From the NCBI GenBank assembly GCA_030147845.1, contig JASBUN010000046.1, forward strand, positions 64,430 to 128,429: a stretch of 64,000 nucleotides of DNA. Reading direction: 5' to 3'. The notes beneath the pieces were generated by a model. The model ran no database searches. It saw only the letters and a program-made list of their open reading frames with translations, and was not told the DNA's origin. The position numbers and the translations under genes are program-made. Below, piece by piece: positions 24,223 to 62,950 of this stretch. The stretch comes from Gammaproteobacteria bacterium. Lineage in GTDB: Bacteria > Pseudomonadota > Gammaproteobacteria > JASBUN01. Within the stretch, counting starts at the first letter, position 1. Each line of letters starts with the position of its first letter.

Positions 24223-24530
24223 TGCGATAGCCCGTAACGTGTCAGTGTGCGAATTCTCTGGTGTCGCCCGTCATTGCACTCACTAAGACCCGGCACGATG
24301 CTGCTGCGACACCATCCGAGGCGCTACTAACGCATGAATCGTTGGCGACATTCGGAGGCAGGTGCTTGTGGCGCATGGACAGAGACGATCCGAAACCGTC
24401 CAAATTTTGTTTTTCTGCCGTCTAGTTAAGCACTCACCCACGCCTATGTCAAAATATTGTCGTGGGCAACAGTGCGGCAACGCCACGAATTTAATTCGTC
24501 ACGGAATTTAACCTTTTGTATTTTAAGGTA

Positions 24531-27542: not shown

Positions 27543-27576
27543 GTGGCCTCCTGAAATGACCTCCGCAATGTAAAGT

Positions 27577-27591
27577 GCAAGTTCGGTGCCA
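27577..27591 (-). promoter_or_regulatory. Sigma54 promoter TGGCAC-cgaac-TTGC upstream of fliD.
   Basis: A perfect consensus in the flaG-fliD spacer, about 35 nt upstream of the fliD ATG. Confidence 0.65.
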
Positions 27592-28998: not shown

Positions 28999-29026
28999 TG
29001 TAACGGCCACGGGCGCGCCAAACTTT
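28999..29026 (-). promoter_or_regulatory. Sigma28 (FliA)-type promoter TAAAGTTT-N12-GCCGTTAC upstream of fliC.
   Basis: The -35 element is a perfect consensus. The -10 element matches GCCGATAA at 6 of 8 positions. It lies about 110 nt upstream of the fliC start, and an AT-rich tract lies further upstream. Confidence 0.45.
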
Positions 29027-29107
29027 AGGCTCTCCACAACAAAAATTTGACGTCCTTATTTTATTTCGCGATTTATATTTATCCAATTGTTTTTATTAAC
29101 TTTTATT

Positions 29108-31048: not shown

Positions 31049-31061
31049 CGGCCCAATCCGT

Positions 31062-34000
31062 CTACTCGGGAATCACGATATGGGAAGCGGGCTTGCCCGC
31101 TTCCCAGAGCGCCCACATGCGCCGGTAGGCCGACTCCAGGTAACCCACGTAACGCGGTGTATCGAATAGAGGTTGTGTCATTCGGTTTTGCTGCAGGCGT
31201 TGACTCAACTGCAACAACCGCGCTTTGTCACTGGCAAGCGTCACCGCCAGATCTTCATACTGTTGCAGGCTGGCGGTGACCAGCTCCGGTAAACCGACCG
31301 CGTGCAGTAGACTGGCCGCTACGCGCGCGGCGAACGTTTGGCCAGGACAGGTAATCAACGGCAAGCCCGCCCATAGCGCGTCGCTGGCGGTAGTGTGCGC
31401 GTTGCAGTAGAGCGTGTCGAGCAACAGGTCAGCATGCGCGTGACGGGCCAAATGTTCCGGTTTAGGCAGGCGCGGCGCGAACACCAGCCGTTGTGGATCA
31501 ATACCCCGCCGTTCGGCTTCACGCGACAAGTTGAATTGAGCTTCTTCCGATGCTTTGAGCAGCCAAAGAACACTTCCGGGCACGCGCGCGAGGATTCGCA
31601 TCCAAGCGTCAAATATCGTCGGTTCGATTTTGTAGTTGTTGTTGAAGCAACAGAAAACAAACCCCGTTTCCGGCAATCCGCACGCCTGGCGGCTTGGCAC
31701 TGTCTGCGCAATGGCTTGCCTGTGGTCGTTAACCTGATACGAATGCGGCATATAGACCAATTGTTCACGGAAAAACTGCCTCGACTCCGGCGGCGTGACG
31801 TTGGCGTCGCTGATCATATAGTCCATGTATTCAGCGCCCAGCGAGCCGGGATAGCCAAGATAGTTGACCTGTATCGGGGCCGGGCGTAAGGCGAAGATCT
31901 CGGGACGTATGTCGCGCGTATAGCCCTTCAGGTCCACCAGTATATTGATACCGTCATCGGCCACTCGTTGCGCAGTGCGCGCGTAATGTTCATCACTAAT
32001 GTCAATAAAGTGTTCGGTATCCCGCTCGATACGTGTGCGATACTCGCTGCCATCGTCAGATCCGAAAGAATATGCAAAAATTTCGAATTCGTCACGGTCA
32101 TGCAGCCCGAACAAACTCAGCATGAGCTGCGCGGTGGCGTGCGTATAGAAATCCGATGATACGTAACCGATGCGTAAGCGGCCGCTACGCCGCGCACCCG
32201 CGGTAATTTTTATCGCCGGCTCGGTGATCGTCGGCCGAATCACGGTCTGTACATAATTCGCCGCGATGTCGCGCTGCAGGCTCGGCGAAATCGATAATGT
32301 TACCGCATAGAACGGCGTAATTGGGCTGCGCTGTTTTTGTTCGATGAATCGGGCCGTCCACTGCGCCAACTTATCCAGCAGTTGTTCATGCCCATCCCAA
32401 AAACAAATGTCCTGGTAGACTTGAATCAAATTGGCCAGCGCCTGTACGAAATCAGGCTTGACATTAAGCGCTTTGCGATACCAATTGACTGCCTCGCCGT
32501 AGCTGCCGAAATCACGGCATAGCGCACCGAGATTGCTATATACTTCGGCCCGCTCCGGCTGTAGTTCTATTGCTTTGAAATAGCACTCGGCGGCTTCGCG
32601 CGGGCGTGCCTGCGCCTTGCGCACGTTGCCCAGGTTGTTCCAGGCTTCCGCCAATTCGGGTCGCTTCGACAGGACGCGGTTATAACACTCGGCGGCCGCA
32701 TCCAGTCGATGGCGTGTCAAGTGGATATCACCCTGCTTTAAATCCGCCTCGACGTTGTTCGGATCGTAGCCGGATGAAATTTGGTAATGCTCCAGCGCGC
32801 GCTCGAGATCACCTGAGATCTGCAACAAGTGGCTCAAGCGACAATGCATGCGCGACTGCTGCGGTTCGAGTTGCACCGCACGTTCCAAGCAACGGGCTGC
32901 AGCTTCAATCTTACCCTGCTGTTCATAGATCAGACCCAAGTTGTAAAAGCTGTCGGCGTGATCTTGGCACAGCTTTTGGTGACTCTCATAATAACTCGCG
33001 GCGGCATCCAGCTCACCGCGGGCATGCAAATTAGCAGCCAGTAATACGTGCGCATCCGCGAAACAAGGATCGCAATCTATGGCCTGCTTGAAGCACACCG
33101 CCGCTGCCTGCACATCGCCCCGCTGCTGATAGACGCTACCCAATGATGAATGCAGTAGCGCAACGTTCGGTTTCAGCTCAATGGCGCGCTCGATGAGTTC
33201 GGCTGCACGCGCCAAGCGGCCGCCGCTATGTTCGATTACGCCTAACAGGTGCAACGCATCGACGTTGTCGGGCGTCAGATCAAGTACATCCGTATAAACT
33301 TTTTTAGCTAAATCCAACTCACCGGACGAATGCGCCGCTACCGCCTTCTGCAACAACTGCGGGATCCGATCCGGCGACGCGATCGTTTCGGACGTGATGG
33401 TCATTGTTTTTCTGTGCAGCGGCTGTGCTGCCCGCTGTCGCAATGCCGCGTCCACCTGCGCCAGCGTGCCGTCCCAATCACCTGAACTGATCTGGCGAAA
33501 TAAACGCGCCGATGCATACCACGGGCTGTCGTCGCGCCCCGCCAACCAGCGCCAGTCGGCGGCGGCATCGAGCAGCAGCCAGACCTCGCGCCCGAGTGTG
33601 CCGGCCAAATGCGCCACCGCCGTGTCGACAGTGACAATCAAGTCCAGGTTAAGCATCGCCGCCGCGGTATCGGCAAAGTCGTATAGCTGCGCATCAAGCG
33701 CCGTCACGCGCCCGGCACCAGCGGCGTGCGCCAGCTCCCGCGCCGGCGGCCCTTTCTGCAAACTATAAAACGCAGTACCCGGGATCTCGGCCAGCCGCAG
33801 CAGCAAGTGCAACGGGCAAGCGCGTCTGCGATTGTTCGGTTGCTCCGTGTTGCCCGACCAAACAATACCGATGCGTAAGCGCTCTTGATTGCCAATACGA
33901 TCGCGCCATTGCTGCACCAACTCGGCGGCGATCACGGGCGCTTGCGGCGCAGGAATCTGCTCAATGGCGCGACTGTAGAGCGCCGGTAGACTTAAAAGTG

Positions 34001-34988
34001 GAATATGCACGTCGAATTCTATTTTTCCGTCGTCGACATCCTCGCGCGCAACGATTTCGTCAGCGAACCCAGACCTTTGATACAAACGTGAAAGCGCCGC
34101 CGGGCATTCGAACAGTACCCGCCCGCCCGCTTGCAGCACGCGCGGCAAATAGCGCGCGAATTGCAGCGTGTCGCCGAAGCCCTGTTCGGACCAGACCAGG
34201 ATGCGGCGCCCGTTCAGCGCCGCACCGTCCCAGCGCGGAACAGAAAAACTGCGCTGCACGCGCTCGCCACACGCAAAGCCCCACTCATACTCCGGCCAGC
34301 CGCGTGCAAAATCGCCTAATTGCAGCCACAACAGTGAACGGTTCCAGTGCGCCTGCGGCAGTTGTGGCGACAAGCCCAAGGCGCGTTCATAGAATTCAAG
34401 CGCACCGTCAAATTGACCAAGCGCCTGCAACGCGTTGCCGACGTTGCTGTAGGTCGCCGCATGTCCCGGCCGTATCTCCAGCGCCTGCCGGTAGCAATCG
34501 ATGGCTCGACCCGGCTCACCGCGCTGTTTGACCACGTTACCTAAATTGACCAGAGCATCAAAGTAGCGCGGACGCAGACTGATCGCGCGCAACAGGTGGC
34601 TCTCGGCGTCCTCCAAGTGGCCGAGAGCACGTAGCGCAACGGCGTAGTTATTGTGCAACTCGGCGTTGCCCGACTGCATAGGCAACGCCATGCTATACAC
34701 CTCGGCCGCTGCACCCGCCTCGCCGTTGGCGAAGAAGGCGCTGCCGAGCAGTTGATACAAAGCGACCAAGCTCGGGTTTTGCTCCAAGCCGCGCTGGCAA
34801 TGCACGATCAGTTCCGGATAACGGTGCTGCGCGAGGAGCAGCTCACCGAGACGTATCAGTGTATCGGCATGGGCCGGTTGCGCTAGCAACAACGCGCGAT
34901 AGCGATGCTCGCTCTCTACCTCACCGCCCTCGCTCGCCCGGGCATGCGCGTTCAGCGGCAACACTCTCATTTTCCGCCCGCGGCGCAC
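31062..34988 (-). CDS. A 1308-aa multidomain protein: TPR, a GT9 (heptosyltransferase-like) domain, TPR, and an OGT-like GT41 domain.
   Basis: It carries the GT9 signature (DLIVTVDTAVAHLAGTLGREVWLL...W). Its C-terminal module is paralogous to the preceding gene (RIGYVSSDFYTHATAQLM...LRPAPIQVNYLGYPGSLGAEYMDYMISD). Confidence 0.8.
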   Translation of the reverse strand: MRRGRKMRVLPLNAHARASEGGEVESEHRYRALLLAQPAHADTLIRLGELLLAQHRYPELIVHCQRGLEQNPSLVALYQLLGSAFFANGEAGAAAEVYSMALPMQSGNAELHNNYAVALRALGHLEDAESHLLRAISLRPRYFDALVNLGNVVKQRGEPGRAIDCYRQALEIRPGHAATYSNVGNALQALGQFDGALEFYERALGLSPQLPQAHWNRSLLWLQLGDFARGWPEYEWGFACGERVQRSFSVPRWDGAALNGRRILVWSEQGFGDTLQFARYLPRVLQAGGRVLFECPAALSRLYQRSGFADEIVAREDVDDGKIEFDVHIPLLSLPALYSRAIEQIPAPQAPVIAAELVQQWRDRIGNQERLRIGIVWSGNTEQPNNRRRACPLHLLLRLAEIPGTAFYSLQKGPPARELAHAAGAGRVTALDAQLYDFADTAAAMLNLDLIVTVDTAVAHLAGTLGREVWLLLDAAADWRWLAGRDDSPWYASARLFRQISSGDWDGTLAQVDAALRQRAAQPLHRKTMTITSETIASPDRIPQLLQKAVAAHSSGELDLAKKVYTDVLDLTPDNVDALHLLGVIEHSGGRLARAAELIERAIELKPNVALLHSSLGSVYQQRGDVQAAAVCFKQAIDCDPCFADAHVLLAANLHARGELDAAASYYESHQKLCQDHADSFYNLGLIYEQQGKIEAAARCLERAVQLEPQQSRMHCRLSHLLQISGDLERALEHYQISSGYDPNNVEADLKQGDIHLTRHRLDAAAECYNRVLSKRPELAEAWNNLGNVRKAQARPREAAECYFKAIELQPERAEVYSNLGALCRDFGSYGEAVNWYRKALNVKPDFVQALANLIQVYQDICFWDGHEQLLDKLAQWTARFIEQKQRSPITPFYAVTLSISPSLQRDIAANYVQTVIRPTITEPAIKITAGARRSGRLRIGYVSSDFYTHATAQLMLSLFGLHDRDEFEIFAYSFGSDDGSEYRTRIERDTEHFIDISDEHYARTAQRVADDGINILVDLKGYTRDIRPEIFALRPAPIQVNYLGYPGSLGAEYMDYMISDANVTPPESRQFFREQLVYMPHSYQVNDHRQAIAQTVPSRQACGLPETGFVFCCFNNNYKIEPTIFDAWMRILARVPGSVLWLLKASEEAQFNLSREAERRGIDPQRLVFAPRLPKPEHLARHAHADLLLDTLYCNAHTTASDALWAGLPLITCPGQTFAARVAASLLHAVGLPELVTASLQQYEDLAVTLASDKARLLQLSQRLQQNRMTQPLFDTPRYVGYLESAYRRMWALWEAGKPASHIVIPE

Positions 34989-37900
34989 GCGCCGGCAGCC
35001 GCGCCTTCCGTGCCGAGACCCTGCAACCAGTCATCAAAATGATCGTCAAGCATCCAATGCTCATGTGTCCATGCGCGTAGTGCATCACCTTCCCGGCGAC
35101 TGGCGTCAAGATCATTGACGCGTTCCCGTATGGCTTTAATCCACGCCGCCGACGTGTTCGCGACCCGCGTGACCGGCGCATCGCGGTAAGGCTCAATATC
35201 CGTGCAAACTACCGGCCAGCCGAGCGCGCCGTACTCAAGCAGTTTAAGGTTACTTTTGCACTGATTGAAACGATTGTGCGCCAGCGGCGCAACGGCAAGA
35301 TCCAGATCGAGCGCCGCCAAGGTGTTCGGATATTGCTCAAACACAACCGGGTTGTGCACCTCCACACCCAGCGAAAGCCACTCTTCGAAACACAGGCCGA
35401 AAAATACCCACTGGACTTCACTGGCCGTTTTCTTCACGACCTCGTGAATGATGTCTAAATCACCGCTGTGCTGCTGCGCGCCGGCCCAACCGACCCGCGG
35501 CTTGTCGCCGCGACCGCGACGCGATTTCAGCGCCTTCCAGATCGAGCCGTCCAGGTAGTTCGGCACAACCACAATATCATCGCTCCACCCGCGGTACGCC
35601 TGCGCAAGTGCCTCAGTGCTAACAAGCAGCCGGTGACAGGCGCTCATGGCACGGCGCAGACGCTTCTTTACGTCTGGATACACACTCGTGCTGAAACTGT
35701 TATAGCTCGGCAAATGATCGATCAAGTCGTCCTGACCAAACACCAGAAACACGTCTTTGTTGAACCGCCGGTAACGATCCAATGCTTCCAACTGCACGTC
35801 GTGCAATGTGTTGTGGGCCAGCAGAATGTCCGGTGCTTCGCGCGCCAGTTCGGACACACTCGGCACTCGTACACGCTCGATGCATTCCGGAAGCAGATGG
35901 GTCGTCGCCCGCCGCGCGCGCCGTAGCGCTTGCATGGGAATATCCAATCGATGCTGACGCGAGCCCGATGACCCAAGGCTCATGCCTAAGATGCGTGGAC
36001 CATCCGCGCCGTCGTCCCACTGTGCGCACATTTCACTATCCACCGAGTAATCGGTACGTATTAGATTGAGATTGCGGTTGTAGGCCGGATCGCGCGCCAA
36101 TTTCGGCAACCAGCGCTCAAGCATGACTGCAACTTCATTTTTCGCCTGCTGCCATTTTTTCGCATCCTGGTAGTGCCCGTCTTTAAGGCTTGCCGAGCCA
36201 TGATGCACAGCGGTGGAATACGGTGTCCAGACGACGCGAAACCCGTGTTCGCGCACCTTCAAGCACAGATCGACGTCGTTATACATCACCGCCAGCTGGT
36301 CCTCGTCCATACCGCCGACTTGTTCGTAAATCGATTTACGGATCAAAAGACAAGCGCCGGTCAGCGCCGATACGTCGCGCGGACTCTGCGCGATGTTCAT
36401 GGGACCAGCGATTGACATCGGAGCGCCAAAAAACGGATGTTCGGCAACCCCATTTTGGCCCATGCCTAAAACTACGCCGGCATGCTGAATACGCTGATCT
36501 GGAAATACCAACCGCGGGCCAACGGCGCCGACATCCGGTCGCTGCGCCTGACTCATTAAACGGTCCAACCAATTCGGCTGGACAATCACGGTATCGTTAT
36601 TAAGTAATAACAGGTAGTCACCGCATGCTTGCGACGCGGCGACATTGTTGATTGCCGAATAATTGAAAGGATGATCGTAGCGAACCACCGACACCCGTTT
36701 GTGGCGCTGAGCAACCTCGTCCAGATAGCGCAAAGTCCGTTGGTCATCCGTCTGATTGTCGACGACAATCACTTCAAAGTTCTTATAGCCGGTTTTATGC
36801 AGCAGACTCTCCAGACACGGCTCGAGCACGTCCCGGCGGTTGCGCGTCGGCACGATGATCGACACCAACGGTTGAGCGCTGTGCTGATAGTCGATCAGAA
36901 AGCTGCCCGTAGCCAAACCCGGTTCGACCTTGGCGTCGACGCCGGCGCGCGTCAAATGCCCTTCCACGAGGCTCATACCCTGTTCTGACGTCACTTCGCG
37001 TCGTCGCGCGTTAACCTCTAACTGATGTACAAGGACGTCGGCAATATGACCTACGGCTTCGCCGCCAAAAGTCTCGACGACACGCAAACACAAATCGTGA
37101 TTGACCAGCGACCCGAGGCTGACGACACCACCGATGGCAGCTAAAACGGTGCCTTTGACCAGGCAGAAACTGCCTACATAGGCGCAACTTCGCAGCAGTT
37201 CAAGATTGAGGTCCGGCTTGAAACGGGGGTGTGAGCGCGCGCCATCGACGTCGACCGTGTCTTCGTCGGTGTAGACAAATCCAATCGAGGGATTACGTTC
37301 AGCGAATTTCGCGCAGGCGAGCAATGCGCCGGCATCGAGTTGATCGCCGGGTTCCAACAGTGTCACCCAATCCGCGGCGGTTGTCGCGACTGCGGCATCG
37401 ATCGCCGCCGCGATTTCCCGCTCAGCGTGTATCCATTCAAGCATGTCGAGTTCTTCGAACATGGGATCAGGACAGGCCATGGCGGAAACCACCGTCAGGC
37501 CCCAGCCGCCGTAAAGCTGCGCAGACATGCTGTCAATCGTCTTCGCAAGATGCTCAATCGAATCCTCATCGACCACAATGATCACGTGTATGGTTGGCTT
37601 GTGCACCAAACCATCGATCGTTTCCTGTGCGTGTGCTCGCTCGGCGTCGGCACGATGACCACGATGGCGTATCCACTCTGAGTAGGGTTCGACTGTCACC
37701 TTATCAGACGACTCATGCTCGACCTCAACTTCATCTGCATGCGGTATCGGTGCCGGGCGCACGGCGCGTTGCGCGGCGATTGCAGCCAGCTCTGACAAAA
37801 AATCGGCACGTTTTGCGTCGCTCTGATATTTCGCGGCGGCCTGGCAAGCCGCTTCGCCAATTGACGCGCGCAGGGCGGGGTCGGACGCCAAGCGATACAT

Positions 37901-40900
37901 CCACTTCGCCGCTTGCTCAATATCGGCATCAGCCCATACCGCGTCGGCGCCGACGCGCTCACGGCTATAAGCGTTAATTGATGCCTGCACAGGAACTAAG
38001 CGATAATTGACCAGACAGGCGTTGGTGTGGTCCATGAAGCTCATGTTGCCGGACCAGCCGGTCGCGATCACCGGCTTGCCTAACGCCATCGCCTCCATCA
38101 TCCCCAAACCGAAGCCCTCGGCCCGGTGCAGCGACACGAACACATCGCAGCTGGCGTACAACGACAAAACGTCGCTGTAGCTCAACGTATCCGTGATTAA
38201 ATGGACGTTGGCACGGACGCCGCAATAGTCGCGCAAATCCTTAACCCATGCACGCCGTTCGCCGGCGCCGGATGCGCCATTCAGCTTAATGACCAAATGC
38301 GCCGACTGATCGTCGGCGAAAGCGTGCTGGAAAGCCGCCAGCGTCGCGGCCGGGTTTTTGCGTTCCGGATCGCTGTTAAGATCAAAGCTGGAAATGAAAA
38401 TCGTCGCCTTGTCCGGCAATCCGAAGCGATCTCGCTGTGGAGACGACGTGCCCTGCTCGGGCAGCGGGTGTTTAGCGCTCAACACCGGTACGCCGGACAC
38501 CGAAAACGCTAATGCATGACGGATGAAGTCCGATTGCGCAATGAGCACATCCATCGACTGTAGTGCATCCGACCAGCCTCGCGGCAACACGGCCAATTCC
38601 CAAACGCACCAGCAGGCATTAAAACGTGCCGGATTTTGGATAATTTCCGGATATTTGCTAATGAAGCCGGACAAATCCGCGAGTGGAAATACGAATAGAT
38701 TAATTGCATGAGGAAGATCTGTGACCGCATCGACACAGAACCTCTCGAAGCACCGGTCGAACTTTCCGCGCCCCGCACCAGGATCGACGTCATATACCGC
38801 AACCGAACAGCCTTGATCCAAGAGCACCTGCACCACGCTACGCGCCGTAACGCCGACGCCGAGATTACCACTGACGTAGCCAATGACATTGACACCGATG
38901 TTGAGTTTTTGCTTACGCGGGACATCCATATCCGTGACCGTTACCACGGCATCATCGACTTGCATCGGTGCGCGTTGGATCGCCGGTTTAACGTCGGCGC
39001 AGCGCAAACGAACGCGATCCCCGGCCGCGAACATCTGTTCGGCCCGACTACGCTCGCCGATCTGATTCAACGCTTCGCCCAATAGCCAGTATAGGTCCTC
39101 ACAATCCGGATGTAGCTCAACTGCCTTTTCAAGATAAGCGGCGCCATCCTGGGCCGCGTTGGCGTCAATGGTCGCGAGTGCCAAGCCGAGCGTTGCCGGG
39201 CAGCTGTCAGGCATGCGCAGTGACTCGCCGCCATAGAGATGGTCGTTCACCAATCGGTGGACGTAGTAATCCTTCCAAAAATGTGTTTGCTGGACGCCGG
39301 AAAGCTCAGCGACAGCCGGCAAACAGGCGGCCAGCCAGTCTTGGTCCTTGCGCGCGTACGGCGTAACCGATTTTCCGTCTGCGCGCAGCAGACGCATCTT
39401 TGCGAACGTCCGATCGACGTTACAAAACCGGTAGCCCGCGAGCGCTGCCCGCACCCAAAAATCCAAATCGACCGCATACGGCAAATCCTCACGAAACCGC
39501 CCCACCGCGCGTATCAGTTCGGCCGTGAAAAACATCGCGGGCTGAAAAATGTGCAACGGGCGATGCCAACGCAACAGGCGCTGCAGGTCCATTGTCGGCG
39601 GAGGCACGCGAATGCCGATAGGATGGTCGTTCTCCCCAAGAAGGACCACATTGCCGTAGATGAGGTGTACTCCGGCGCCAGGATCAAGCGCTTCCGCGGC
39701 TGTCACAAGTGCGCCTTCGAGGTAAAAGTCATCGGCATTCAACCAACCGATGATGTCACCCGACGCCATCTCCAGCGCTTTATTCAGGGCATCCGGCTCG
39801 CCCCGGTCAGGCTCTGAAATCCAATGTACATGCGGATAATCCCGCAAAATATCCAGCGTCTGATCGTCTGAACCGCCGTCGACGACGATATGCTCGAAGT
39901 TGTCGTAACCTTGCGCGAGTACGCTGTCAATGCATTGTCGAATATAGGCCGCGCAATTCAGCGCCGGCGTAATGATCGATATTTTTGCGCCGCACCCCTG
40001 CACGCCACGTCTACGGGTTGATTCTACCGCCTCACGCATATTCACTCCGTCCGTCTGCCTCGGTGCTGAGCGAGCGTCATGCGACTGCACCCCGATTTTC
40101 CTCGTGCTAGCACCATCGGCGCCAAGGCATTCAACATTCGTATGTTGCCGTGCCGAGCGCACACCCCGGCGCGTTTGCACAGCGTCGAGCATCTGCTGCC
40201 ATCTGCCGGCCTGCACATCAGCGCAAAAATTCTGTCGTATGGTCTCACGCGCTGCTGAGCCCAGCGTCTTGCAGCGCTCGGGATCGCGCCACAGTTCAAC
40301 CACGAAGCGCGCAAACTCTTGCGCGTTGCGCGCGATTAGACCGTTTTTGCCGTGTTCGATCGGCGATTGATCGGCAACGTTCCGCAGTGCAATCACCGGT
40401 ACGCCGTAGGCCATGGATTCGAGAATTTTCACCTGCATTCCGGTACCGCCGATCACCGGACATATGGCGAAGCGGCTTCTCGTATACACGTCACTCAGTT
40501 CGGCTACGTAGCCCGCCAGCTCGACACCGGCCACCGGCACAATCTTGTTGCATGCGCCACCGATCACTTTCAAAACAAACTCCGGGCAGGCCGACCGTAC
40601 GGTCGGCAGCACATTCGCGGCAAAATAGGCGTAGCCTTGAATATTCAAACAGTAATCGGACACCACCAACACAGGCGCACTGTCGTAGCTATTGTCGACG
40701 TTCACAATCTCATAGGTAATCGGGATTTCTTCGACCAATGTTTGCGATGTATGATTTTGAATCAGTTTCGCGTCCAACGATGAAAAGGCCACCGTCACGT
40801 CGTAGTTGTCATAAATCGCATATTCTTCCGCGCCCGCTAACAACGTGCTTAAGTCGATACCCGAATAGAAGTTTTCGGAAAGCGCCGCGGGATTGACTGC

Positions 40901-41395
40901 AGCCGGCTCCACCGGCACCTTGAGATACGGCGCGATACGCGCCTGCATGTGCTCGTTTAATGTCAGTGAGTCGTGACTAACGATGACGCGAATGGCGCTC
41001 TTGTACTCGTCCCCGAGCGCCAATCTTCCCCACCACGCATAATGCACGACAACCAGGTCCGGTTGGATTTTCTGGAACAGGTCACGAAAAGCGTCAAGAA
41101 GCCATGGCGGATTGAAGCGGCTCCAACTGTTTGGCGCCTTACCCCCTTGCCGCGCCGTGTAGAGCGCATCTAACCAGTCACCACCGTAGTAATATACCTG
41201 TGCGCCGAATTCGGTGTTCAGATAATCAACCGCTTCTTTGCTCCACGGAATATCGGTCGAAACAGAAGTCCCGAAAACATGCAGCTCATAGCCGATACTC
41301 GCCAACGCCCGAAGTATCGCCAGTTCACTTCGATGTGTGCCGGTTTGTGGCGGATACGGACAGTAGGGATCAAATACCAGCGCTTTCAATTTCAT
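34967..41395 (-). CDS. A 2142-aa cytoplasmic protein made of about six glycosyltransferase modules (GT4, GT2, GT4, GT2-like, GT2, GT4-like).
   Basis: Repeated GT-A signatures are present (ISIITPALNCAAYI...VVDGGSDD...NADD; VSIIVPTRNRRDVL...VVDNQTDD...NNDT). GT-B C-terminal signatures are also present (HRAEGFGLGMMEAMALGKPVIAT). There are no transmembrane segments. Confidence 0.8.
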   Translation of the reverse strand: MKLKALVFDPYCPYPPQTGTHRSELAILRALASIGYELHVFGTSVSTDIPWSKEAVDYLNTEFGAQVYYYGGDWLDALYTARQGGKAPNSWSRFNPPWLLDAFRDLFQKIQPDLVVVHYAWWGRLALGDEYKSAIRVIVSHDSLTLNEHMQARIAPYLKVPVEPAAVNPAALSENFYSGIDLSTLLAGAEEYAIYDNYDVTVAFSSLDAKLIQNHTSQTLVEEIPITYEIVNVDNSYDSAPVLVVSDYCLNIQGYAYFAANVLPTVRSACPEFVLKVIGGACNKIVPVAGVELAGYVAELSDVYTRSRFAICPVIGGTGMQVKILESMAYGVPVIALRNVADQSPIEHGKNGLIARNAQEFARFVVELWRDPERCKTLGSAARETIRQNFCADVQAGRWQQMLDAVQTRRGVRSARQHTNVECLGADGASTRKIGVQSHDARSAPRQTDGVNMREAVESTRRRGVQGCGAKISIITPALNCAAYIRQCIDSVLAQGYDNFEHIVVDGGSDDQTLDILRDYPHVHWISEPDRGEPDALNKALEMASGDIIGWLNADDFYLEGALVTAAEALDPGAGVHLIYGNVVLLGENDHPIGIRVPPPTMDLQRLLRWHRPLHIFQPAMFFTAELIRAVGRFREDLPYAVDLDFWVRAALAGYRFCNVDRTFAKMRLLRADGKSVTPYARKDQDWLAACLPAVAELSGVQQTHFWKDYYVHRLVNDHLYGGESLRMPDSCPATLGLALATIDANAAQDGAAYLEKAVELHPDCEDLYWLLGEALNQIGERSRAEQMFAAGDRVRLRCADVKPAIQRAPMQVDDAVVTVTDMDVPRKQKLNIGVNVIGYVSGNLGVGVTARSVVQVLLDQGCSVAVYDVDPGAGRGKFDRCFERFCVDAVTDLPHAINLFVFPLADLSGFISKYPEIIQNPARFNACWCVWELAVLPRGWSDALQSMDVLIAQSDFIRHALAFSVSGVPVLSAKHPLPEQGTSSPQRDRFGLPDKATIFISSFDLNSDPERKNPAATLAAFQHAFADDQSAHLVIKLNGASGAGERRAWVKDLRDYCGVRANVHLITDTLSYSDVLSLYASCDVFVSLHRAEGFGLGMMEAMALGKPVIATGWSGNMSFMDHTNACLVNYRLVPVQASINAYSRERVGADAVWADADIEQAAKWMYRLASDPALRASIGEAACQAAAKYQSDAKRADFLSELAAIAAQRAVRPAPIPHADEVEVEHESSDKVTVEPYSEWIRHRGHRADAERAHAQETIDGLVHKPTIHVIIVVDEDSIEHLAKTIDSMSAQLYGGWGLTVVSAMACPDPMFEELDMLEWIHAEREIAAAIDAAVATTAADWVTLLEPGDQLDAGALLACAKFAERNPSIGFVYTDEDTVDVDGARSHPRFKPDLNLELLRSCAYVGSFCLVKGTVLAAIGGVVSLGSLVNHDLCLRVVETFGGEAVGHIADVLVHQLEVNARRREVTSEQGMSLVEGHLTRAGVDAKVEPGLATGSFLIDYQHSAQPLVSIIVPTRNRRDVLEPCLESLLHKTGYKNFEVIVVDNQTDDQRTLRYLDEVAQRHKRVSVVRYDHPFNYSAINNVAASQACGDYLLLLNNDTVIVQPNWLDRLMSQAQRPDVGAVGPRLVFPDQRIQHAGVVLGMGQNGVAEHPFFGAPMSIAGPMNIAQSPRDVSALTGACLLIRKSIYEQVGGMDEDQLAVMYNDVDLCLKVREHGFRVVWTPYSTAVHHGSASLKDGHYQDAKKWQQAKNEVAVMLERWLPKLARDPAYNRNLNLIRTDYSVDSEMCAQWDDGADGPRILGMSLGSSGSRQHRLDIPMQALRRARRATTHLLPECIERVRVPSVSELAREAPDILLAHNTLHDVQLEALDRYRRFNKDVFLVFGQDDLIDHLPSYNSFSTSVYPDVKKRLRRAMSACHRLLVSTEALAQAYRGWSDDIVVVPNYLDGSIWKALKSRRGRGDKPRVGWAGAQQHSGDLDIIHEVVKKTASEVQWVFFGLCFEEWLSLGVEVHNPVVFEQYPNTLAALDLDLAVAPLAHNRFNQCKSNLKLLEYGALGWPVVCTDIEPYRDAPVTRVANTSAAWIKAIRERVNDLDASRREGDALRAWTHEHWMLDDHFDDWLQGLGTEGAAAGACAAGGK

Positions 41396-41437
41396 TTATC
41401 CGTCCGGTGGTCGACGTTACGTTTTCACACGTCTGCA

Positions 41438-44017
41438 TTAGCGGCCAATGATCTTGCGCGAAGCATTACCGAAACGGTCGTTCGCCCAGGCGTCATTCGA
41501 CTCAAGTCCCAAGGCCCATTCAAAGGCCTTGGCCGATTCCAACTGACGCGCGTCCATGCGCAAATGTTCGCCGAGCACACCCATGACGTTGGCGCAGTCG
41601 GGCATATCGTTACCCAATACCGGGTCAATGATCCCGCCTCGGACTAAACCCAATTCCTTTGCCGCCAGCATAAATCCGGTCATCGCTCGGGGATCGACAC
41701 CGACTTCCACGGCCGCATCGGCGTAGTAGGCAGGACTGCCGAAGTTGCGGAACCGAAACTCGTAGTAATCTTTCCAGAAGTGAATTTGTTCGCCGTCGCT
41801 CAGCGCCTCGAGATGAGGGCTACAGATTTGCAGCCACTCTTGGGCCTTCACCGCGTACGGCGTCTCGGTCTTACCACCCTCGCGATAAATCATCGCCTTG
41901 GCGAACACGCGGTCCAGGTAGTGAAACGCGTAGCCTTTGGCGGCAATACGGAACCAATAGTCATAGTCAACGCCATAATTCAAATCTTCCCGGAAGGGAC
42001 CAACATCGCGCATCAGTTCGGTCGAAAAGAAAATTGATGGCTGGAATAGATTGAGACGAAACCAACGGGTCAGGGTGACCACATTCAGGGGTGCGTACGG
42101 GATGACCCAGTTGGTCGGCACTTCGCTGTCGTCGATAAACAATGCTTTGCCATAAAACAGATGCGCATCGGGATTGTCCGCCGCAGCGTTCGAAATCGCG
42201 TCGAACGCGCCTTTGATGTATCGGTCGTCAGCGTTCAACCAACCAATGATGTCCCCCGAGACCATACGCAACGCCTTGTTGAGGGCTTGCGCTTCACCGT
42301 CATCGGGCTCAGAAACCCAGTTTACGTGTGGATAACGGCGAAGGACTTCCGCGGTGCCGTCAGTAGATGCGCCATCGACAACGATATGTTCGAAATTCTC
42401 ATAGCCTTGCGCCATTACACTCTCGATGCACTTGCTGAGTAATGCGGCGCAATTGAACGTAGGCGTGACAATGCTAATTTTCGGCTTTGCAGCGCGTCCC
42501 GATCGATGAACTGCGCGCAGGCTCGGCGTCGCCGCCCCACGGGCCCGCACGGTGGCTTGCAAATGCTGATATGCGTCCTCATCTTCAGCCCTCAGCCGCA
42601 CGGCTTCTTCCAGATCGCACTCGGACTGCTGCAGATATCCCAGTTCTCGCATCAGGATGCCACGATGGAGAAATACGCTTCCGGCGTCGTAACCGAATCG
42701 CATTGCAAGATCAAACAGTTGCCGCGCTTTAATTTTCTCGCCTCGAGCGGCCAAAGCCCGGGCATGTAGAAAATGCCATTCGCCATCTTCAACCAGATGT
42801 TCACCGCAATCGCCCAACAAATCCGCCGCGCGCTGCCATTGCTGCGCCGCTACAGCGCGCTGCGCCAACGCCTTCACGCAGTTCTGCCACCATTGACGCA
42901 CTTCGGTCGAGTCGCGGCGACGCTCCAAAGCGCGCTTCAGATCCACCTGCGCAGCGTCCAAATGCCCGGCCTGCAATAGTCGCTTACCGCGATTGAAGCT
43001 CACCAGGAACTCGTCCATTCCCTCGATCGTGCCATCTTCAAGCAGTTGTTTCACGTGCTCGCGCAAGCGCGCCAGACGATCATCATCCGGGCTCTGATCG
43101 GCTTGCATGTCCAGCGCCGCAACACAGTCCTCGACACGTCCGAGATGCAGCAACACCCAGGCCCGCCAATAGTTCAATTGGTCGTGCGGCTGACCGGATC
43201 GCACGGCTGACTCGAGCAACGTCAGCGCATATTCGAGCGTCAGGTTATTGGACTGGCTCGCATCGGCGGCCTGCTCGACGGCCATGGCCACTACCTCAAG
43301 TACGTCGTCTACGCTGTAAGCCGGCAACTTCGGCACACGCGGGGCCTGTTCGCCGGCTCGCGTCAGCACTAGATGAAAACTCTCCGACAGCTGTAGCGGG
43401 CCACGCACCCAATCGATGTCAAAATAGTCGGCAAGCTTTTGATGGTGCCGGAATCCGTGCGCGGCGAACAACTCGAGCCACCATTCCTTTCCATGTACCG
43501 TCTGATGGTAAATAACGCCGCCGACGGCATCTTCGAAATCCGCCACGCTCATGATCCAGATGCCGCCTGGCTTTAGGTGTCGACGCACATTACTGCACAC
43601 GGCCTCCAGCTGCGGCTCAGCCACGTGTTCCATTAGCTCCCACGAGGTGACTGCGTCGAACCGCAAGAGGCTGTCGGCCGACGATTTGCCATGCGCGGGC
43701 ACAAGTGAAAATTCTTGCGTCACATCGCAGGTGAATAGATGCTCCGGTATCGCAGGCCACGCCCCGCGCGCGCTGCGCTGGCAGTAATCGCTGCCTTCCA
43801 AACCGATCGCCAAGTGGCCATCGTCCAGACAATCTTTGACGAAAGCTCCGCCCGAGCAGCCCAGGTCCAGAACGCTAGCGCGCGCCGCGTTGAGGAGTTT
43901 GTATAGCTTCTTGTTAAACAGGGGATTGCGGCTGTTATCCTGTTTCGCGCCGTGCGGTGCGATATGATCCGGAGAGTCGGTAGCGACGGGCTTATTGGTC
44001 TGACAGACAATTTTCAT
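41438..44017 (-). CDS. An 859-aa fusion of a SAM-dependent methyltransferase, a TPR/helical linker and a GT2 glycosyltransferase.
   Basis: The N-terminus has methyltransferase motif I (VLDLGCSGGAFV) and a post-I acidic region. A GT2 module (KISIVTPTFNCAALL...VVDGASTDG...NADDRY) is paralogous to the one in the 2142-aa gene. Confidence 0.75.
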   Translation of the reverse strand: MKIVCQTNKPVATDSPDHIAPHGAKQDNSRNPLFNKKLYKLLNAARASVLDLGCSGGAFVKDCLDDGHLAIGLEGSDYCQRSARGAWPAIPEHLFTCDVTQEFSLVPAHGKSSADSLLRFDAVTSWELMEHVAEPQLEAVCSNVRRHLKPGGIWIMSVADFEDAVGGVIYHQTVHGKEWWLELFAAHGFRHHQKLADYFDIDWVRGPLQLSESFHLVLTRAGEQAPRVPKLPAYSVDDVLEVVAMAVEQAADASQSNNLTLEYALTLLESAVRSGQPHDQLNYWRAWVLLHLGRVEDCVAALDMQADQSPDDDRLARLREHVKQLLEDGTIEGMDEFLVSFNRGKRLLQAGHLDAAQVDLKRALERRRDSTEVRQWWQNCVKALAQRAVAAQQWQRAADLLGDCGEHLVEDGEWHFLHARALAARGEKIKARQLFDLAMRFGYDAGSVFLHRGILMRELGYLQQSECDLEEAVRLRAEDEDAYQHLQATVRARGAATPSLRAVHRSGRAAKPKISIVTPTFNCAALLSKCIESVMAQGYENFEHIVVDGASTDGTAEVLRRYPHVNWVSEPDDGEAQALNKALRMVSGDIIGWLNADDRYIKGAFDAISNAAADNPDAHLFYGKALFIDDSEVPTNWVIPYAPLNVVTLTRWFRLNLFQPSIFFSTELMRDVGPFREDLNYGVDYDYWFRIAAKGYAFHYLDRVFAKAMIYREGGKTETPYAVKAQEWLQICSPHLEALSDGEQIHFWKDYYEFRFRNFGSPAYYADAAVEVGVDPRAMTGFMLAAKELGLVRGGIIDPVLGNDMPDCANVMGVLGEHLRMDARQLESAKAFEWALGLESNDAWANDRFGNASRKIIGR

Positions 44018-44227
44018 CGGTTTGGTATCCCCGGCCGCTATGGCCGCTAGAAGAATCGACGTGCATCTTGGCCTGTTGGGTACAACGCCTCACTCATATC
44101 GCAACGCGCATTCTGACAGTAAAGAACGCCCCGTCTGCAGCACAGTACAGACGGAACTTGAGTGCACTCATCCATCCGGACGCATGTTGAAACGCCGCCC
44201 TCGATCGGCCACGCCTTTACCGTCGAT

Positions 44228-44242
44228 GCAATTCATGTGCCA
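44228..44242 (-). promoter_or_regulatory. Sigma54 promoter TGGCAC-atgaa-TTGCA upstream of the four-gene glycosyltransferase operon.
   Basis: A perfect -24/-12 consensus about 210 nt upstream of the ATG at 44017. An AT-rich tract with an IHF-like TATCATaatgTTA lies just upstream, at about 44255-44285. Confidence 0.6.
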
Positions 44243-44520
44243 CGGCGAAAACTTATAACATTATGATAATTAATATTTTTTTATTTCTATGAGGTGTCGG
44301 GAAATTGTCACTAAACACGGTTGATCGCCGATGTGGCGCGCGCGGAGACGATATCGTGGCGCCGTATTAGCGCCATGACTAGCACACGCACAGCGCGGCG
44401 ACCCGCAAACGTGCCGCATGCAGCACGCCCTCGCGCCACGCCAAGGCGGCCGGAAAGCCGCGCTCTAATAGCCGCGTCGTGCTCAGGTGGGTAAAAGGAC
44501 GATCGATACTGAATTGGCCA

Positions 44521-46070: not shown

Positions 46071-46967
46071 TCAGCGTAGATAGTTGAACAACGAAAGTCC
46101 CTGCACCTTAACGTAGGTCTGCTGCGCGGCGTTCAATCCAGTCATTTGCTGATTGAGGCTGGTCACTGCCGAGGCGTAATCCAAATCTTCGATTTGGCTT
46201 TTGGTTTGTTGAATCTGCAGGATATTGGTGTCGTTCACACTTTTTTGCAGGTCGATGGCATTGAGCCGTGCGCCTACGCTCGCCTGAATCGTTAATATGT
46301 TTTTCATCGCCGCGTCGATTTCGGTAATCGTCGAAGGACTCGGAGTATTGGCATTCAGATCAGTCACCATTTTTTTCAAAATACCGAAGGTATTGCTCGT
46401 CGTTCCCGGAATATTCATGAACACGCTCGCGCCGGAATCGCCGGTGGTAATATAGCGCGTAGGTCCGATCTGCAGCGAGCGCTGACCCTGGTCACCAGCG
46501 TAGGTAAACGTGCCGTTACCGGTTTCCGAAAATGGTGTCTGTTTCGATTGATATCCAGCGAAAATATACTCGCCATTGGCATCCTGCGTGTTCGCCAGAT
46601 TTTTCATACTGTCGAGCAGCTGGTTGACTTCAGTCGCAATGGCCTTGCGGCTGTCGGCGCTTTCAGTGCCGTTGTTGCCCTGAACCGCCAGTTCGCGCGC
46701 GCGTTGTAATAAACTTACCGCGTTGGTGAGCGTGCCGTCCTCAACATTCAGGCGCGCTTGGGCTGCATTCGAATTACTTTGAAACTGCTGATTCAATTGC
46801 AACGATTGACTCAGCCCAAGCACGCTGGCGGCACCGGATGGATCATCGGCCGGACTGACAATGCGCTTGCCGGTGGACAACTGCAACTGCGTCTTGCTGA
46901 TCTGGGCCTGCCGATCCAGCATCGCATTAACGCTGAGCGTCTGCATCTGTTGTGTCGAGATTCTCAT
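46071..46967 (-). CDS. flgL: Hook-filament junction protein FlgL (HAP3)
   Basis: A 298-aa protein with a flagellin-like N-terminus (MRISTQQMQ...RIVSPADDPSGAA). Confidence 0.9.
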   Translation of the reverse strand: MRISTQQMQTLSVNAMLDRQAQISKTQLQLSTGKRIVSPADDPSGAASVLGLSQSLQLNQQFQSNSNAAQARLNVEDGTLTNAVSLLQRARELAVQGNNGTESADSRKAIATEVNQLLDSMKNLANTQDANGEYIFAGYQSKQTPFSETGNGTFTYAGDQGQRSLQIGPTRYITTGDSGASVFMNIPGTTSNTFGILKKMVTDLNANTPSPSTITEIDAAMKNILTIQASVGARLNAIDLQKSVNDTNILQIQQTKSQIEDLDYASAVTSLNQQMTGLNAAQQTYVKVQGLSLFNYLR

Positions 46968-46973
46968 ATCCGA

Positions 46974-48893
46974 TTACCCCATCGCACTTAGGACGGCGTT
47001 AAACAAGGTATTGGCGACCGTAATAACCCGCGCCGAAGCCTGATAGGCTTGCTGGAAACGCACCAGGTTGGCCGCCTCTTCGTCCAAATTGACGCCCGAT
47101 ACCGAGTCTCGAGTCGAGGTCGACTGCTGTAGCAACGCGGTTTGCGCGCTAGTGGTCAATTCCGCCTGCTTGGTTTGGGTACCGACGTTAGCGACCACGC
47201 TGCCATAGACGTCGACGACGCTACTGGCGCCCTGGTCCATTACCGTTTTGGATTGCACGCCGGCCAATAGTAGCGAGTTGCGATTGTCGCCCGCGCCGCT
47301 GGTATTGCTCTGCACGGTAAACGTATCGCCGGCTGCCGGCGTACCACTGATTTGCAGCGTCCAGCCGTTGTAGCTGATGTCGCCACCGCTGGTGTAGGCG
47401 ACGCTGGCTGGACCACCGGTGCCGGTACCGCTGACGCTGAACGTTGTCGGCGGACTATTGAACGTGATCGTCACCGGCTGCTGCAAATTGACGTTTGTGG
47501 GTGGCGGCCCGTTCACCGTTCCCGTACTGATAGTAGTGTCACCCGTGTTGGTGGAAGCCGCCGATGTGCGGATCGGCGCCGCGGCTGCGATCGCATTCGT
47601 CTGCGTAATCTTCACGCCGATATCGCGTGCACCGTTGTAAGTCGGACGGATCAGGAATTTGTCGCCGCTGGCAATAGCGCCCGAGCCGAGCGACAACGAG
47701 ACGCCGTCGACGGTGACCGCCGAGCCGGGAAATCCCATCGCGCCGATGTCGGTAACGGTGCCGTCCGACTGGCGGGTCAAAGTATAACTGCTGCCGTTGC
47801 GCTGCAGCGTGTAGTTGCTATTGGTAAGATCGGCAATATTTGAAATCGAGGCGTTCACCGTCGCCGTACCGGAATTGCCGCTATTGGGCGTAACCTGCGG
47901 CGCGCCGACACTAAAGAAGTCACCGCCGAGTTTGCCGTTCAAATCCTGGCCGAGCTTGTGCTGGTCATTGAATGACTGCGCCAAGCCGATAGCTACACGG
48001 CCGAGACCGCTAATGGCTGGATCCAAAATATTGTCACGAAAATCAACCAACCCGGCGATCTTGCCGCCGCTCAACTGGCGCGTAACGTCAACGCTACCGC
48101 CACTCGAATCGACATAAGCCACCTGCAAGCGAGTCGGATCATAGGGGTCTTTAACCGTGGACAGTTGCTGCGCCTTGGTACCGACCACCATGCTTTGGCC
48201 GCTACCAATGAATACATTGAGCGTTCCGTCGGATTGCGGCGCCGTGCGCACAGACGTGTACTGAGACAACTCATTGACGAGTTGATCACGCTGGTCCAAT
48301 AAATCGCTCGGCAATTGATTACCAGAGCCCTTGGGCGAGTTAAGAATGTTCTTATTGACCTGAGCGATGCTGGTCGCCAGCGAGTTGACTTGTTGCACCA
48401 CGTCAGAGAGCTGGGTGTTCACCCCGGCACGCATGCCGTCCAGGCGCGAATATAGGTCTTGGAAGCGTGCCGCCACCGTTTGCGCCTGCGATAACACCAC
48501 TTGGCGCGCCGGTGTCGACGTTGGATCTGATGACAAGTCCTGAACTGCGCCGAAGAAGTTTTGTATCGTAGGCGCTACACCACTTTTCGCGTCGGCCAAC
48601 ATATTGTCGACTTGTACTGCTAGATCATGCGTTGTTTGGCTCTGATTCATGGCCGAACTGGCGCTACGTACCTGATCGGTGAGAAACTGATCGAAGACGC
48701 GGCTGACATTGGCCACCTGCACACCGCTGCCGATGTACGTGCCGCCGGTAAACTGCGGTTGATTGGTGGTCAACTCGGTTCGTTGGCGACTATAGCCGGG
48801 CGTGTTGACGTTGGAGATATTGTTGCTGGTGGTCGCCAACGCACGTTGATAGGCCATCAGACCTGATACGCCGGTACCCAGTAAATCAGCCAT
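46974..48893 (-). CDS. flgK: Hook-associated protein FlgK (HAP1)
   Basis: The protein begins MADLLGTGVSGLMAYQRAL...NISNVNTPGYSRQ. I placed the start at the ATG at 48893, which is preceded by AGGAGG. Confidence 0.9.
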   Translation of the reverse strand: MADLLGTGVSGLMAYQRALATTSNNISNVNTPGYSRQRTELTTNQPQFTGGTYIGSGVQVANVSRVFDQFLTDQVRSASSAMNQSQTTHDLAVQVDNMLADAKSGVAPTIQNFFGAVQDLSSDPTSTPARQVVLSQAQTVAARFQDLYSRLDGMRAGVNTQLSDVVQQVNSLATSIAQVNKNILNSPKGSGNQLPSDLLDQRDQLVNELSQYTSVRTAPQSDGTLNVFIGSGQSMVVGTKAQQLSTVKDPYDPTRLQVAYVDSSGGSVDVTRQLSGGKIAGLVDFRDNILDPAISGLGRVAIGLAQSFNDQHKLGQDLNGKLGGDFFSVGAPQVTPNSGNSGTATVNASISNIADLTNSNYTLQRNGSSYTLTRQSDGTVTDIGAMGFPGSAVTVDGVSLSLGSGAIASGDKFLIRPTYNGARDIGVKITQTNAIAAAAPIRTSAASTNTGDTTISTGTVNGPPPTNVNLQQPVTITFNSPPTTFSVSGTGTGGPASVAYTSGGDISYNGWTLQISGTPAAGDTFTVQSNTSGAGDNRNSLLLAGVQSKTVMDQGASSVVDVYGSVVANVGTQTKQAELTTSAQTALLQQSTSTRDSVSGVNLDEEAANLVRFQQAYQASARVITVANTLFNAVLSAMG

Positions 48894-48998
48894 GATGCCC
48901 CTCCTTCGCACCCTCGGCGCTTGCCGCGCACAGGCACGAGCCGGCGCCGTATGCGCCCATTCGCGCGCCGACGCCTCTCAGCTTAGCGGCCGTCCGGT

Positions 48999-51952: not shown

Positions 51953-51994
51953 TAAACCAGCGTTAGTGCAGAGTAATGCCAGAAACGTGCCAGA

Positions 51995-56390: not shown

Positions 56391-56427
56391 GACTGACTCC
56401 GGCTATACGGTTCTTGACAGAACTAAA

Positions 56428-56442
56428 GCAATTGCCGTGCCA
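56428..56442 (-). promoter_or_regulatory. Sigma54 promoter TGGCAC-ggcaa-TTGC upstream of flgB.
   Basis: A perfect consensus about 40 nt upstream of flgB. Confidence 0.65.
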
Positions 56443-56565
56443 GAGTAGAATATTGTTCTAATTCATATTGTTATAATTGAAGAAAAGCGAGTGATAGGGA
56501 CCACCGGCAAGCGCGCGCCTACTAGGCGGCAATAATTGCAGCCTACGGCAAAGCGCCTGAAGCAA

Positions 56566-59432: not shown

Positions 59433-59459
59433 TAAAGCTTAGCGGGCCGCGGCCGATAT
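59433..59459 (+). promoter_or_regulatory. Sigma28 promoter TAAAGCTT-N11-GCCGATAT upstream of flgMN.
   Basis: Each element matches the TAAAGTTT-N11-GCCGATAA consensus at 7 of 8 positions, with the correct spacing. It lies about 45 nt upstream of flgM. Confidence 0.65.
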
Positions 59460-62747: not shown

Positions 62748-62823
<76 letters not shown>

Positions 62824-62836
62824 ATAAATTCATGAT

Positions 62837-62867
62837 CGGACCGCACCCTGCGCGGTCCGCACCTTTT
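62837..62867 (+). terminator. GC-rich hairpin (8-bp stem CGGACCGC/GCGGTCCG) followed by a TTTT run, between the two tRNAs.
   Basis: Seen directly in the sequence. It could be a terminator or a tRNA processing element. Confidence 0.3.
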
Positions 62868-62873
62868 CACTCC

Positions 62874-62950
62874 GCCTCGGTAGCTCAGTTGGATAGAGCA
62901 ACCCCCTCCTAAGGGGTAGGTCGCAGGTTCGACTCCTGCTCGGGGCGCCA
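62874..62950 (+). tRNA. tRNA-Arg (anticodon CCT)
   Basis: The cloverleaf folds by hand. It has the anticodon loop CTCCTAA, the T-loop GGTTCGACTCC and an encoded CCA 3' end. Confidence 0.85.

Follow-up and report, generated by a model that had tools for sequence, protein, structure and literature searches.

A predicted sigma-54 promoter heads the glycosyltransferase operon between flgL and fliC in the polar flagellar cluster of an uncultured gammaproteobacterium

The DNA considered here is a 64,000-nt stretch (hereafter the window) of contig JASBUN010000046.1, from an uncultured gammaproteobacterium whose nearest species representatives carry an FlgL only 57% identical to its own. The window holds a polar flagellar gene cluster in which four glycosyltransferase (GT) genes are inserted between flgL and fliC. 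A sigma-54 core motif on the minus strand at 44227–44242, in the 503-nt gap (44018–44520) upstream of these genes, is probably a functional promoter heading the operon. We base this prediction on the statistics of the motif, on an architecture shared with other flagellar promoters of the window, on the recurrence of such motifs at similar islands in relatives, and on precedent in other bacteria. The features discussed are collected in Table 1.

The minus strand around the promoter reads catagaaataaaaaaatattaattatcataatgttataagttttcgccgTGGCACatgaaTTGCAtcgacgg. All 11 specified bases of TGGCAC-N5-TTGCW are matched at the exact spacing within the 16-nt core, with the GG at 44240–44241 and the GC at 44228–44229; the initial annotation had recognised the motif correctly but ended it one base short at the 3' end (44228–44242). 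Four perfect copies of TGGCAC-N5-TTGCW occur in the window against 0.16 expected, and none of 100 shuffled sequences gave four. All four lie on the minus strand, which is the flagellar coding strand, in intergenic DNA directly 5' of operons. Besides the site at the GT operon they precede fliK, fliD and flgB, and the fliL promoter, which had also been listed as of the same type, differs from them by one mismatch (TGGCAT). Further one-mismatch versions are found ahead of the fleS-like kinase gene and flgA and at the flgG-flgH junction, and these, like the fliL copy, keep the GG-N10-GC core (Table 1). The motif in the 503-nt gap is in the sense orientation for the operon, with 209 nt between its 3' end and the start codon (ATG 44017), and no sigma-28-like site was found in the same gap.

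The sequence upstream of the motif shares its organisation with two other promoters of the cluster. An AT-rich block directly abuts the −24 box, and it contains an A7 tract (44276–44282) followed, after 7 nt, by a core resembling the binding site of integration host factor (IHF), TATCATAATGTTA / TATCATaatgTTA (44256–44268), which agrees with the IHF consensus WATCAANNNNTTR at 12 of 13 positions, as the initial annotation had noted in outline. The IHF site H' of phage lambda has the form A6-N8-TATCAAtttgTTG / TATCAATTTGTTG, which the block resembles. Blocks of at most 25% GC over 40 nt occur at seven places in the window (24–29% GC once merged); six are in promoter-bearing intergenic DNA and the seventh is coding (flgJ, 3' end). 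Of these blocks, three directly adjoin a sigma-54 −24 box, namely that of fliL, of the GT operon or of flgB, and the best match of the promoter region to any other in the window (14/16, TCATAaTGTTATAA) is to the flgB AT-rich block, in opposite orientation. An enhancer, a bend and a promoter in succession form the classic layout of IHF-assisted sigma-54 promoters. As at such promoters (nifH, Pu and pspA), an A-tract and a WATCAANNNNTTR-like core lie here between putative enhancer dyads and the −24 box, whereas, compared with these promoters and with lambda H', the core departs from the consensus at one position and is centred only ~46 bp from the predicted start site.

Sigma-54 motifs also accompany glycosylation islands in other lineages. 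In L023 and L024 (FlgL 65% identical) the arrangement of flgL followed by a sulfotransferase-like/TPR gene after a 43-nt gap is kept, and the island continues with a methyltransferase gene, a DegT/hexapeptide-transferase pair in divergent orientation and a giant GT; in L023 the latter shares 49% identity with the 2142-aa protein of the window over 924 aa. In the 294-nt divergent gap of these two relatives, a perfect TGGCACAGAGCTTGCT precedes the giant GT by 88 nt and a one-mismatch TGGTACGGTAATTGCA faces the DegT/hexapeptide-transferase operon. In L006 (FlgL 57%) a perfect motif stands 40 nt past the flgL stop, ahead of a sugar-nucleotide operon (RmlD/GMD/GHMP-kinase/SIS/nucleotidyltransferase), and the island contains a further divergent pair of perfect motifs, one of which heads a WbqC-methyltransferase-DegT operon. 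In the distant L025, which carries fliW and csrA, TGGCATAAGATTTGCT heads an operon with the same methyltransferase-TPR/GT2/giant-GT module as the window. Leaders in relatives measure 60–115 nt. Scans of genomes and metagenomes anchored on FlgL returned few close relatives, and L017–L022 were without a sigma-54 motif of at most one mismatch. Judged by sequence comparison, the motifs at these islands are recurrent solutions, not one conserved promoter, and beyond the motif type no non-coding sequence is shared; their recurrence in L023, L006 and L025 is good evidence that islands of this kind are under functional sigma-54 control.

The cluster itself encodes candidate activators. Both of its enhancer-binding proteins, one FleQ-like (22771–24222) and one FleR-like (20042–21397), have the GAFTGA loop, and a FleS-like kinase, FliA, FlhF and FleN are encoded in the cluster as well. 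In Pseudomonas putida, FleQ activates all flagellar sigma-54 promoters, from sites either upstream or downstream (bioRxiv 10.1101/2021.08.29.457346). By analogy, the FleQ-like protein would be the default candidate for the activator of the GT promoter, with the FleR-like protein as the alternative. In the mechanism that we propose, RNA polymerase with sigma-54 would bind the −24 GG and the −12 GC as a closed complex, which an AAA+ enhancer-binding protein (FleQ-like by default, FleR-like alternatively) would remodel, contacting the polymerase through DNA looping. Looping would be aided by the block that adjoins the −24 box on its upstream side, with its high AT content, A-tract and IHF-like core, and the intrinsic bend of the A-tract could do the job of IHF instead. 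We infer that transcription starts near 44216 and crosses the leader into the GT genes, so that the modifying enzymes would appear in one tier with the hook, hook-associated and cap proteins, ahead of their presumed flagellin substrate.

Several observations weigh against this interpretation. Searching 44018–44520 for the Pseudomonas FleQ box (GTCAATAAATTGAC) with up to three mismatches gave no match, and the TTGCCG repeats seen at the flgB promoter are absent from the promoter region of the GT operon. The rpoN gene is not within the window; its presence in the genome may be deduced from eight further sigma-54 motifs. IHF-like cores with one mismatch abound, the window holding 62 where 28 would be expected, and IHF binding at the AT-rich block is therefore a reasonable idea that goes no further than resemblance. 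The sole orthologous copy of the promoter, in L001 (from Logan), is identical, but L001 belongs to the same species and diverges by ~1% throughout, with six substitutions in the gap, so that at ~99% overall identity conservation of the promoter is uninformative. L013 offers a two-mismatch sigma-54 candidate only, and alignments of the gap with those of L023, L006 and L013 returned chance matches and no conserved non-coding block. Finally, no convincing terminator was found between the stop of the upstream gene at 44521 and the sigma-54 promoter. The earlier assignment of the operon to a FleQ/FleR-RpoN tier is supported for RpoN, for which the motif, its placement, the GAFTGA activators, the relatives and the literature all speak; for FleQ or FleR, still the candidate activators, no FleQ box with up to three mismatches and no TTGCCG repeats were found at the promoter.

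Putative sites of both activator types are present elsewhere in the cluster. FleQ boxes with up to three mismatches number 15 in the window against 3.6 expected, and lie, among other places, ahead of the fleS promoter (22770–22783), fleQ (24448–24461) and flhA (6860–6873); in L023 a FleQ-box-like sequence, TTGACGAAATATTGAC (11200–11225, 10/14 to the consensus), stands between the two divergent sigma-54 motifs. TTGCCG/CGGCAA hexamer repeats are found upstream of flgB promoters in five taxa (the window, L006, L007, L008 and L013), and within the window TTGCCG clusters only at flgB (56505–56551), inside fliK (13921–14009) and at one unrelated place. The fliK cluster is in coding region, 300–380 nt downstream of the fliK promoter. 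These repeats may represent the enhancer of the FleR-like activator, possibly acting from downstream at fliK. Near the GT promoter itself the best local match to the FleQ box is GACAATTTCCCGAC (8/14), and the weak candidate site GTGACAATTTCCCGACAC resembles GAGTCAATGTCCCGGCAC, which is similarly placed upstream of the fliL promoter. Further upstream, two dyads with centres 52 bp apart, at approximately −150 and −203, are candidate enhancer sites. The proximal one is the sole perfect TGGCGC-N7-GCGCCA in the window, looser matches occurring at chance level. Neither dyad was found to recur at the other promoters of the window, and pairwise 16-mer comparison with all its other sigma-54 promoter regions gave no significant activator site.

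With no convincing terminator after the upstream gene, read-through could contribute to expression of the operon. It is accordingly conceivable, if rather unlikely, that the sigma-54 promoter is real but secondary, boosting or uncoupling an operon whose RNA comes mostly from the flg(H)IJKL-sulfotransferase/TPR transcript reading through. The genes all share one orientation, the upstream gene abuts flgL, and a conserved sigma-54-like motif ahead of flgH could feed such a transcript. A 503-nt gap with full promoter architecture would be unusual for simple read-through, however, and the divergent glycosylation operons of L023 and L006 must have promoters of their own and carry sigma-54 motifs.

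The upstream gene itself encodes a protein of 501 aa, ahead of which no sigma-54 motif of at most one mismatch was found. The initial annotation had described a sulfotransferase-like gene that lacks such a promoter and abuts flgL, and this agrees with the present results, including the 44-nt gap that separates it from flgL. It is probably co-transcribed with flgL, a possibility raised in the initial annotation, in line with that gap and with the same arrangement in L023. The N-terminal 259 residues fall below the Pfam threshold (Sulfotransfer_3, E = 0.0087), and the label sulfotransferase-like for this domain rests on homologues only, four of five of which match Sulfotransfer_3 with E down to 6e-12. 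The loop that would bind 3'-phosphoadenosine-5'-phosphosulfate (in the region of residues 1–15) reads GQCGM here and GRSGT, conserved, in the homologues; with its loop degenerate in this way the domain may be catalytically inactive. Upstream of flgL, the motif at the flgG-flgH junction, TGGCACG(T/G)(T/A)TCTGGCA, is kept in four taxa (FlgL 57–65% identical), at 4768–4783 in L006, 4543–4558 in L013 and 1312–1327 in L023. An internal promoter in front of flgH is thereby suggested, and flgK, flgL and the sulfotransferase-like gene could be served by it as well.

The distance from the sigma-54 motif to the GT genes is unusual within the cluster. ATG 44017 is the most upstream start possible in frame, and the N-terminus that it gives, MKIVCQTNKPVATDSPDH...NSRNPLFNKKLY, aligns from residue 1–2 with the homologues P0003–P0006, so that it is the true start. 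Counting from the C of the −12 GC at 44228, transcription would begin at ~44216 and the leader would be ~199 nt long, as the previous estimate of about 200 nt had anticipated. At fliD, flgB, fliK, fliL and fleS the motif stands 33–54 nt from the start codon, and the leader of the GT operon thus exceeds those of the window's other sigma-54 promoters 4–6-fold in length. Scanning the gap and the whole window against Rfam gave no match in the leader, only the two tRNAs at 62748–62947, and the whole leader folds no more stably than its shuffles (z = −0.10). A terminator-like hairpin within it (44128–44157) is more stable than most (z = −1.8), with 10 of 200 shuffles folding equally well; terminator-like matches in this DNA are at chance frequency overall. 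Small open reading frames in the gap, for example one of 42 aa at 44047–44175, are without supporting evidence, and L001 is too close to be informative on them.

It might be argued from this long leader, and from the 12-bp hairpin (−18.7 kcal/mol) with its T-containing tail, that the promoter mainly yields a leader RNA of ~90 nt ending at 44128–44157 and acting as attenuator or as sigma-54-dependent small RNA, the GT genes being reached by regulated read-through only. RpoN-dependent flagellar small RNAs have been described in Campylobacter jejuni (PMC11187230). We regard this as improbable: the T-run (GTTCTTTACT) is weak, terminator-like matches are no more frequent than by chance, the whole-leader fold (z = −0.1) and the Rfam scan are negative, and the relatives, with leaders of 60–115 nt, have no conserved counterpart. 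More broadly, and with equally low expectation, the leader may be a regulatory device and not a passive spacer, whether by terminating at 44128–44157 to give a ~90-nt RpoN-dependent small RNA or attenuator gating the GT genes or by carrying a downstream enhancer for the activator, or else an activator other than FleQ/FleR may act through the dyads at ~−150 and ~−203. If either were true, glycosylation would have a checkpoint of its own, apart from the structural genes.

There is only a slim chance that a sigma-70 promoter in the AT-rich block (TAGAAA-18-CATAAT, 44289–44260) drives the operon, the sigma-54 motif being silent or a roadblock. It matches at 9 of 12 positions, and sigma-70 promoters are often located in AT-rich intergenic DNA, but its −35 element is poor, a single match compares with 1.9 expected in shuffled sequences, and a perfect sigma-54 site and its recurrence in relatives would be left unexplained. 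That the motif is a chance or non-functional look-alike, for which the want of a recognisable activator site might be cited, is very improbable when 0.16 perfect sites are expected per window, the chance of a sense site in the 503-nt gap is estimated at ~1e-4 to 1e-3, and the same solution appears in L023, L006 and L025.

The operon that the sigma-54 promoter would head spans 29108–44017 on the minus strand (~15 kb), between flgL and fliC, and its genes follow each other closely (junctions of +42, −22 and +13 nt). GT and sugar-modification genes are thus inserted in the flgL-fliC interval, as expected of a flagellar glycosylation island, and flagellin would be the substrate of their products. 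The exact sequence of the 859-aa product of the first gene (MT-TPR-GT2, for methyltransferase-TPR-GT2) is not on record, and after L001 its next homologues are 46% identical; these occur in sugar and flagellar glycosylation clusters. Homologous glycosylation genes also adjoin flagellar genes in L023/L024 and L025. The MT-TPR-GT2 gene and the giant multi-domain GT move together as a module in distant lineages (L002, L003 and L025): in L025 it adjoins a flagellar rod gene, fliW and csrA, in L002 and L003 heptose-type sugar-nucleotide genes, and in the window two OGT-like TPR-GT41 proteins are added beside fliC. The module looks like a flagellar glycosylation system that is as yet uncharacterised. 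No clear terminator was found at the boundary between the operon and fliC; a perfect stem-loop, ACGGGTGACCGACGTCGGTCACCCGT, lies at 29145–29172 on the minus strand, within the final 20 codons of the last GT41 gene.

By Pfam and NCBIfam scans the cluster is of the polar flagellar type known from Pseudomonas and Vibrio. In minus-strand order it begins with cheV/cheR-like genes, flgBCDE, flgFGHIJ, flgK (46974–48911) and flgL (46071–46967), continues with the 501-aa sulfotransferase-like/TPR gene, the 503-nt gap, the four GT genes, fliC (28044–28886) and fliD, and ends with the genes for the FleQ-like activator, the FleS-like kinase and the FleR-like activator, fliE-R, flhBA, flhF, fleN, fliA and cheZ. 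A sigma-28-type promoter precedes fliC (Table 1), and similar elements (TAAAG-N14-15-GCCGATAA-like) are present at fliA (2688–2715, minus strand) and after flgA, on the flgM side (59433–59459, plus strand); together, as predicted from these sequences, they would outline the late tier of the cascade. Since fliC has a promoter of this type, synthesis of the glycosylation enzymes would precede that of flagellin by one tier. The initial annotation had expected their expression to be timed with filament assembly, which needs refining accordingly.

Some further sequences were noted in passing. The motif CGGCAC(A/T)TGGTTTGCT, found on the opposite strand in L013 (11005–11020, minus) and L008 (11841–11856 and 12596–12611, minus), is not a promoter. 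In L008 it falls within the 3'-terminal parts of two flagellin genes in tandem, its reverse complement encoding ANQVP, and the L013 copy, in the flgL-TPR gap, may be a flagellin gene remnant. The two tRNA genes of the window (62748–62947, plus strand) stand beside an arsenosugar-type glycosyltransferase-like gene (61965–62663), with a relA/spoT fragment near them at the window edge.

Table 1. Coordinates of promoters, regulatory candidates and genes discussed in the text (window positions).
Feature	Position	Strand	Basis or remark
Predicted sigma-54 promoter core of the GT operon, TGGCAC-atgaa-TTGCA (TGGCACatgaaTTGCA / TGGCACATGAATTGCA)	44227–44242	−	Motif search, perfect match
AT-rich block abutting the −24 box, 69 nt	44240–44308	−	29% GC; window 57.5%; part upstream of the −24 box, 44243–44308
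Weak candidate activator site, GTGACAATTTCCCGACAC (GTGACAATTTCCCGAC)	44294–44311	−	8/14 to Pseudomonas FleQ box; not significant alone
Inverted repeat, TCATGGCGC-N7-GCGCCACGA, ~−138 to −162	44354–44378		Candidate enhancer dyad; putative function
Palindrome, CGTGCTGCATGCGGCACG, ~−195 to −211	44410–44427		Candidate second enhancer site; putative function
Untranslated leader, ~199 nt	44018–44216	−	From predicted start site
Leader hairpin, 12 bp, followed by GTTCTTTACT	44128–44157	−	−18.7 kcal/mol; terminator-like
Gene 1, MT-TPR-GT2, 859 aa	41438–44017	−	Pfam
Gene 2, multi-domain GT (GT4-GT2-TPR-GT4-GT2), 2142 aa	34967–41395	−	Pfam
Gene 3, TPR-GT41 (OGT-like), 1308 aa	31062–34988	−	Pfam; 22-nt overlap with gene 2
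Gene 4, TPR-GT41 (OGT-like), 646 aa	29108–31048	−	Pfam; 13 nt past gene 3; last before fliC
Sulfotransferase-like/TPR protein, 501 aa	44521–46026	−	Starts 44 nt past flgL stop
Perfect TGGCAC-N5-TTGCW ahead of fliK	14304–14319	−	Window search
Perfect TGGCAC-N5-TTGCW ahead of fliD	27576–27591	−	Window search
Perfect TGGCAC-N5-TTGCW ahead of flgB	56427–56442	−	Window search
One-mismatch motif (TGGCAT) ahead of fliL	12650–12665		Keeps GG-N10-GC
One-mismatch motif ahead of fleS-like kinase gene	22702		Keeps GG-N10-GC
One-mismatch motif ahead of flgA	58535	+	Keeps GG-N10-GC
One-mismatch motif at flgG-flgH junction	51977–51992	−	Keeps GG-N10-GC
Sigma-28-type promoter ahead of fliC, TAAAGTTT-N12-GCCGTTAC	29000–29027	−	

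The arrangement has precedents in other bacteria. For Xanthomonas oryzae pv. oryzae, a review places gigX1-10, an island for flagellin glycosylation, among the class II genes regulated by RpoN2 and FleQ, whereas fliC depends on FliA (PMC8657755, citing Yu et al. 2018). As with gigX, the island here is located inside the flagellar cluster, has a predicted RpoN-type promoter and would serve a flagellin of the sigma-28/FliA tier. Unlike gigX, it consists of four giant multi-domain GTs (two GT41/OGT-like proteins and an MT-TPR-GT2 fusion among them), FleS and FleR are also encoded, and its regulation is predicted. In Helicobacter pylori and C. jejuni, too, enzymes of flagellin glycosylation are encoded among the RpoN-dependent middle genes (PMC3930126, PMC5368276), which times them before or with the filament subunits, as proposed here. 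These epsilonproteobacteria differ in relying on FlgSR, on pseudaminic and legionaminic acid pathways and on Maf-type transferases, and their genes are scattered, with no single flgL-fliC island. A parallel in organisation is the FleQ/FleR cascade of P. putida and Pseudomonas aeruginosa, with which the cluster shares its fleQ-fleSR and flhF-fleN-fliA order and TGGCAC-N5-TTGC at flgB, fliK, fliD, fliL and fleS. Modification genes are preferentially inserted at the flgL-fliC junction in Pseudomonas (bioRxiv 10.1101/2021.08.29.457346), but no Pseudomonas-type FleQ box was found at the promoter described here, and the same study describes no promoter dedicated to glycosylation genes.

Since flagellin glycosylation genes are already established as RpoN-controlled in Xanthomonas and the epsilonproteobacteria, the current understanding is unchanged, and the present case adds one more member to a known type of regulation, in a lineage that has been poorly sampled and with unusual enzymes. 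It would assign to the sigma-54 tier an unusual and very large array of flagellar GTs, including two GT41 proteins and a multi-GT of 2142 aa, and these enzymes are predicted to accumulate before flagellin. Sigma-54 motifs ahead of differently composed islands in several lineages suggest a general rule, which could aid the annotation of such islands and the prediction of their expression.

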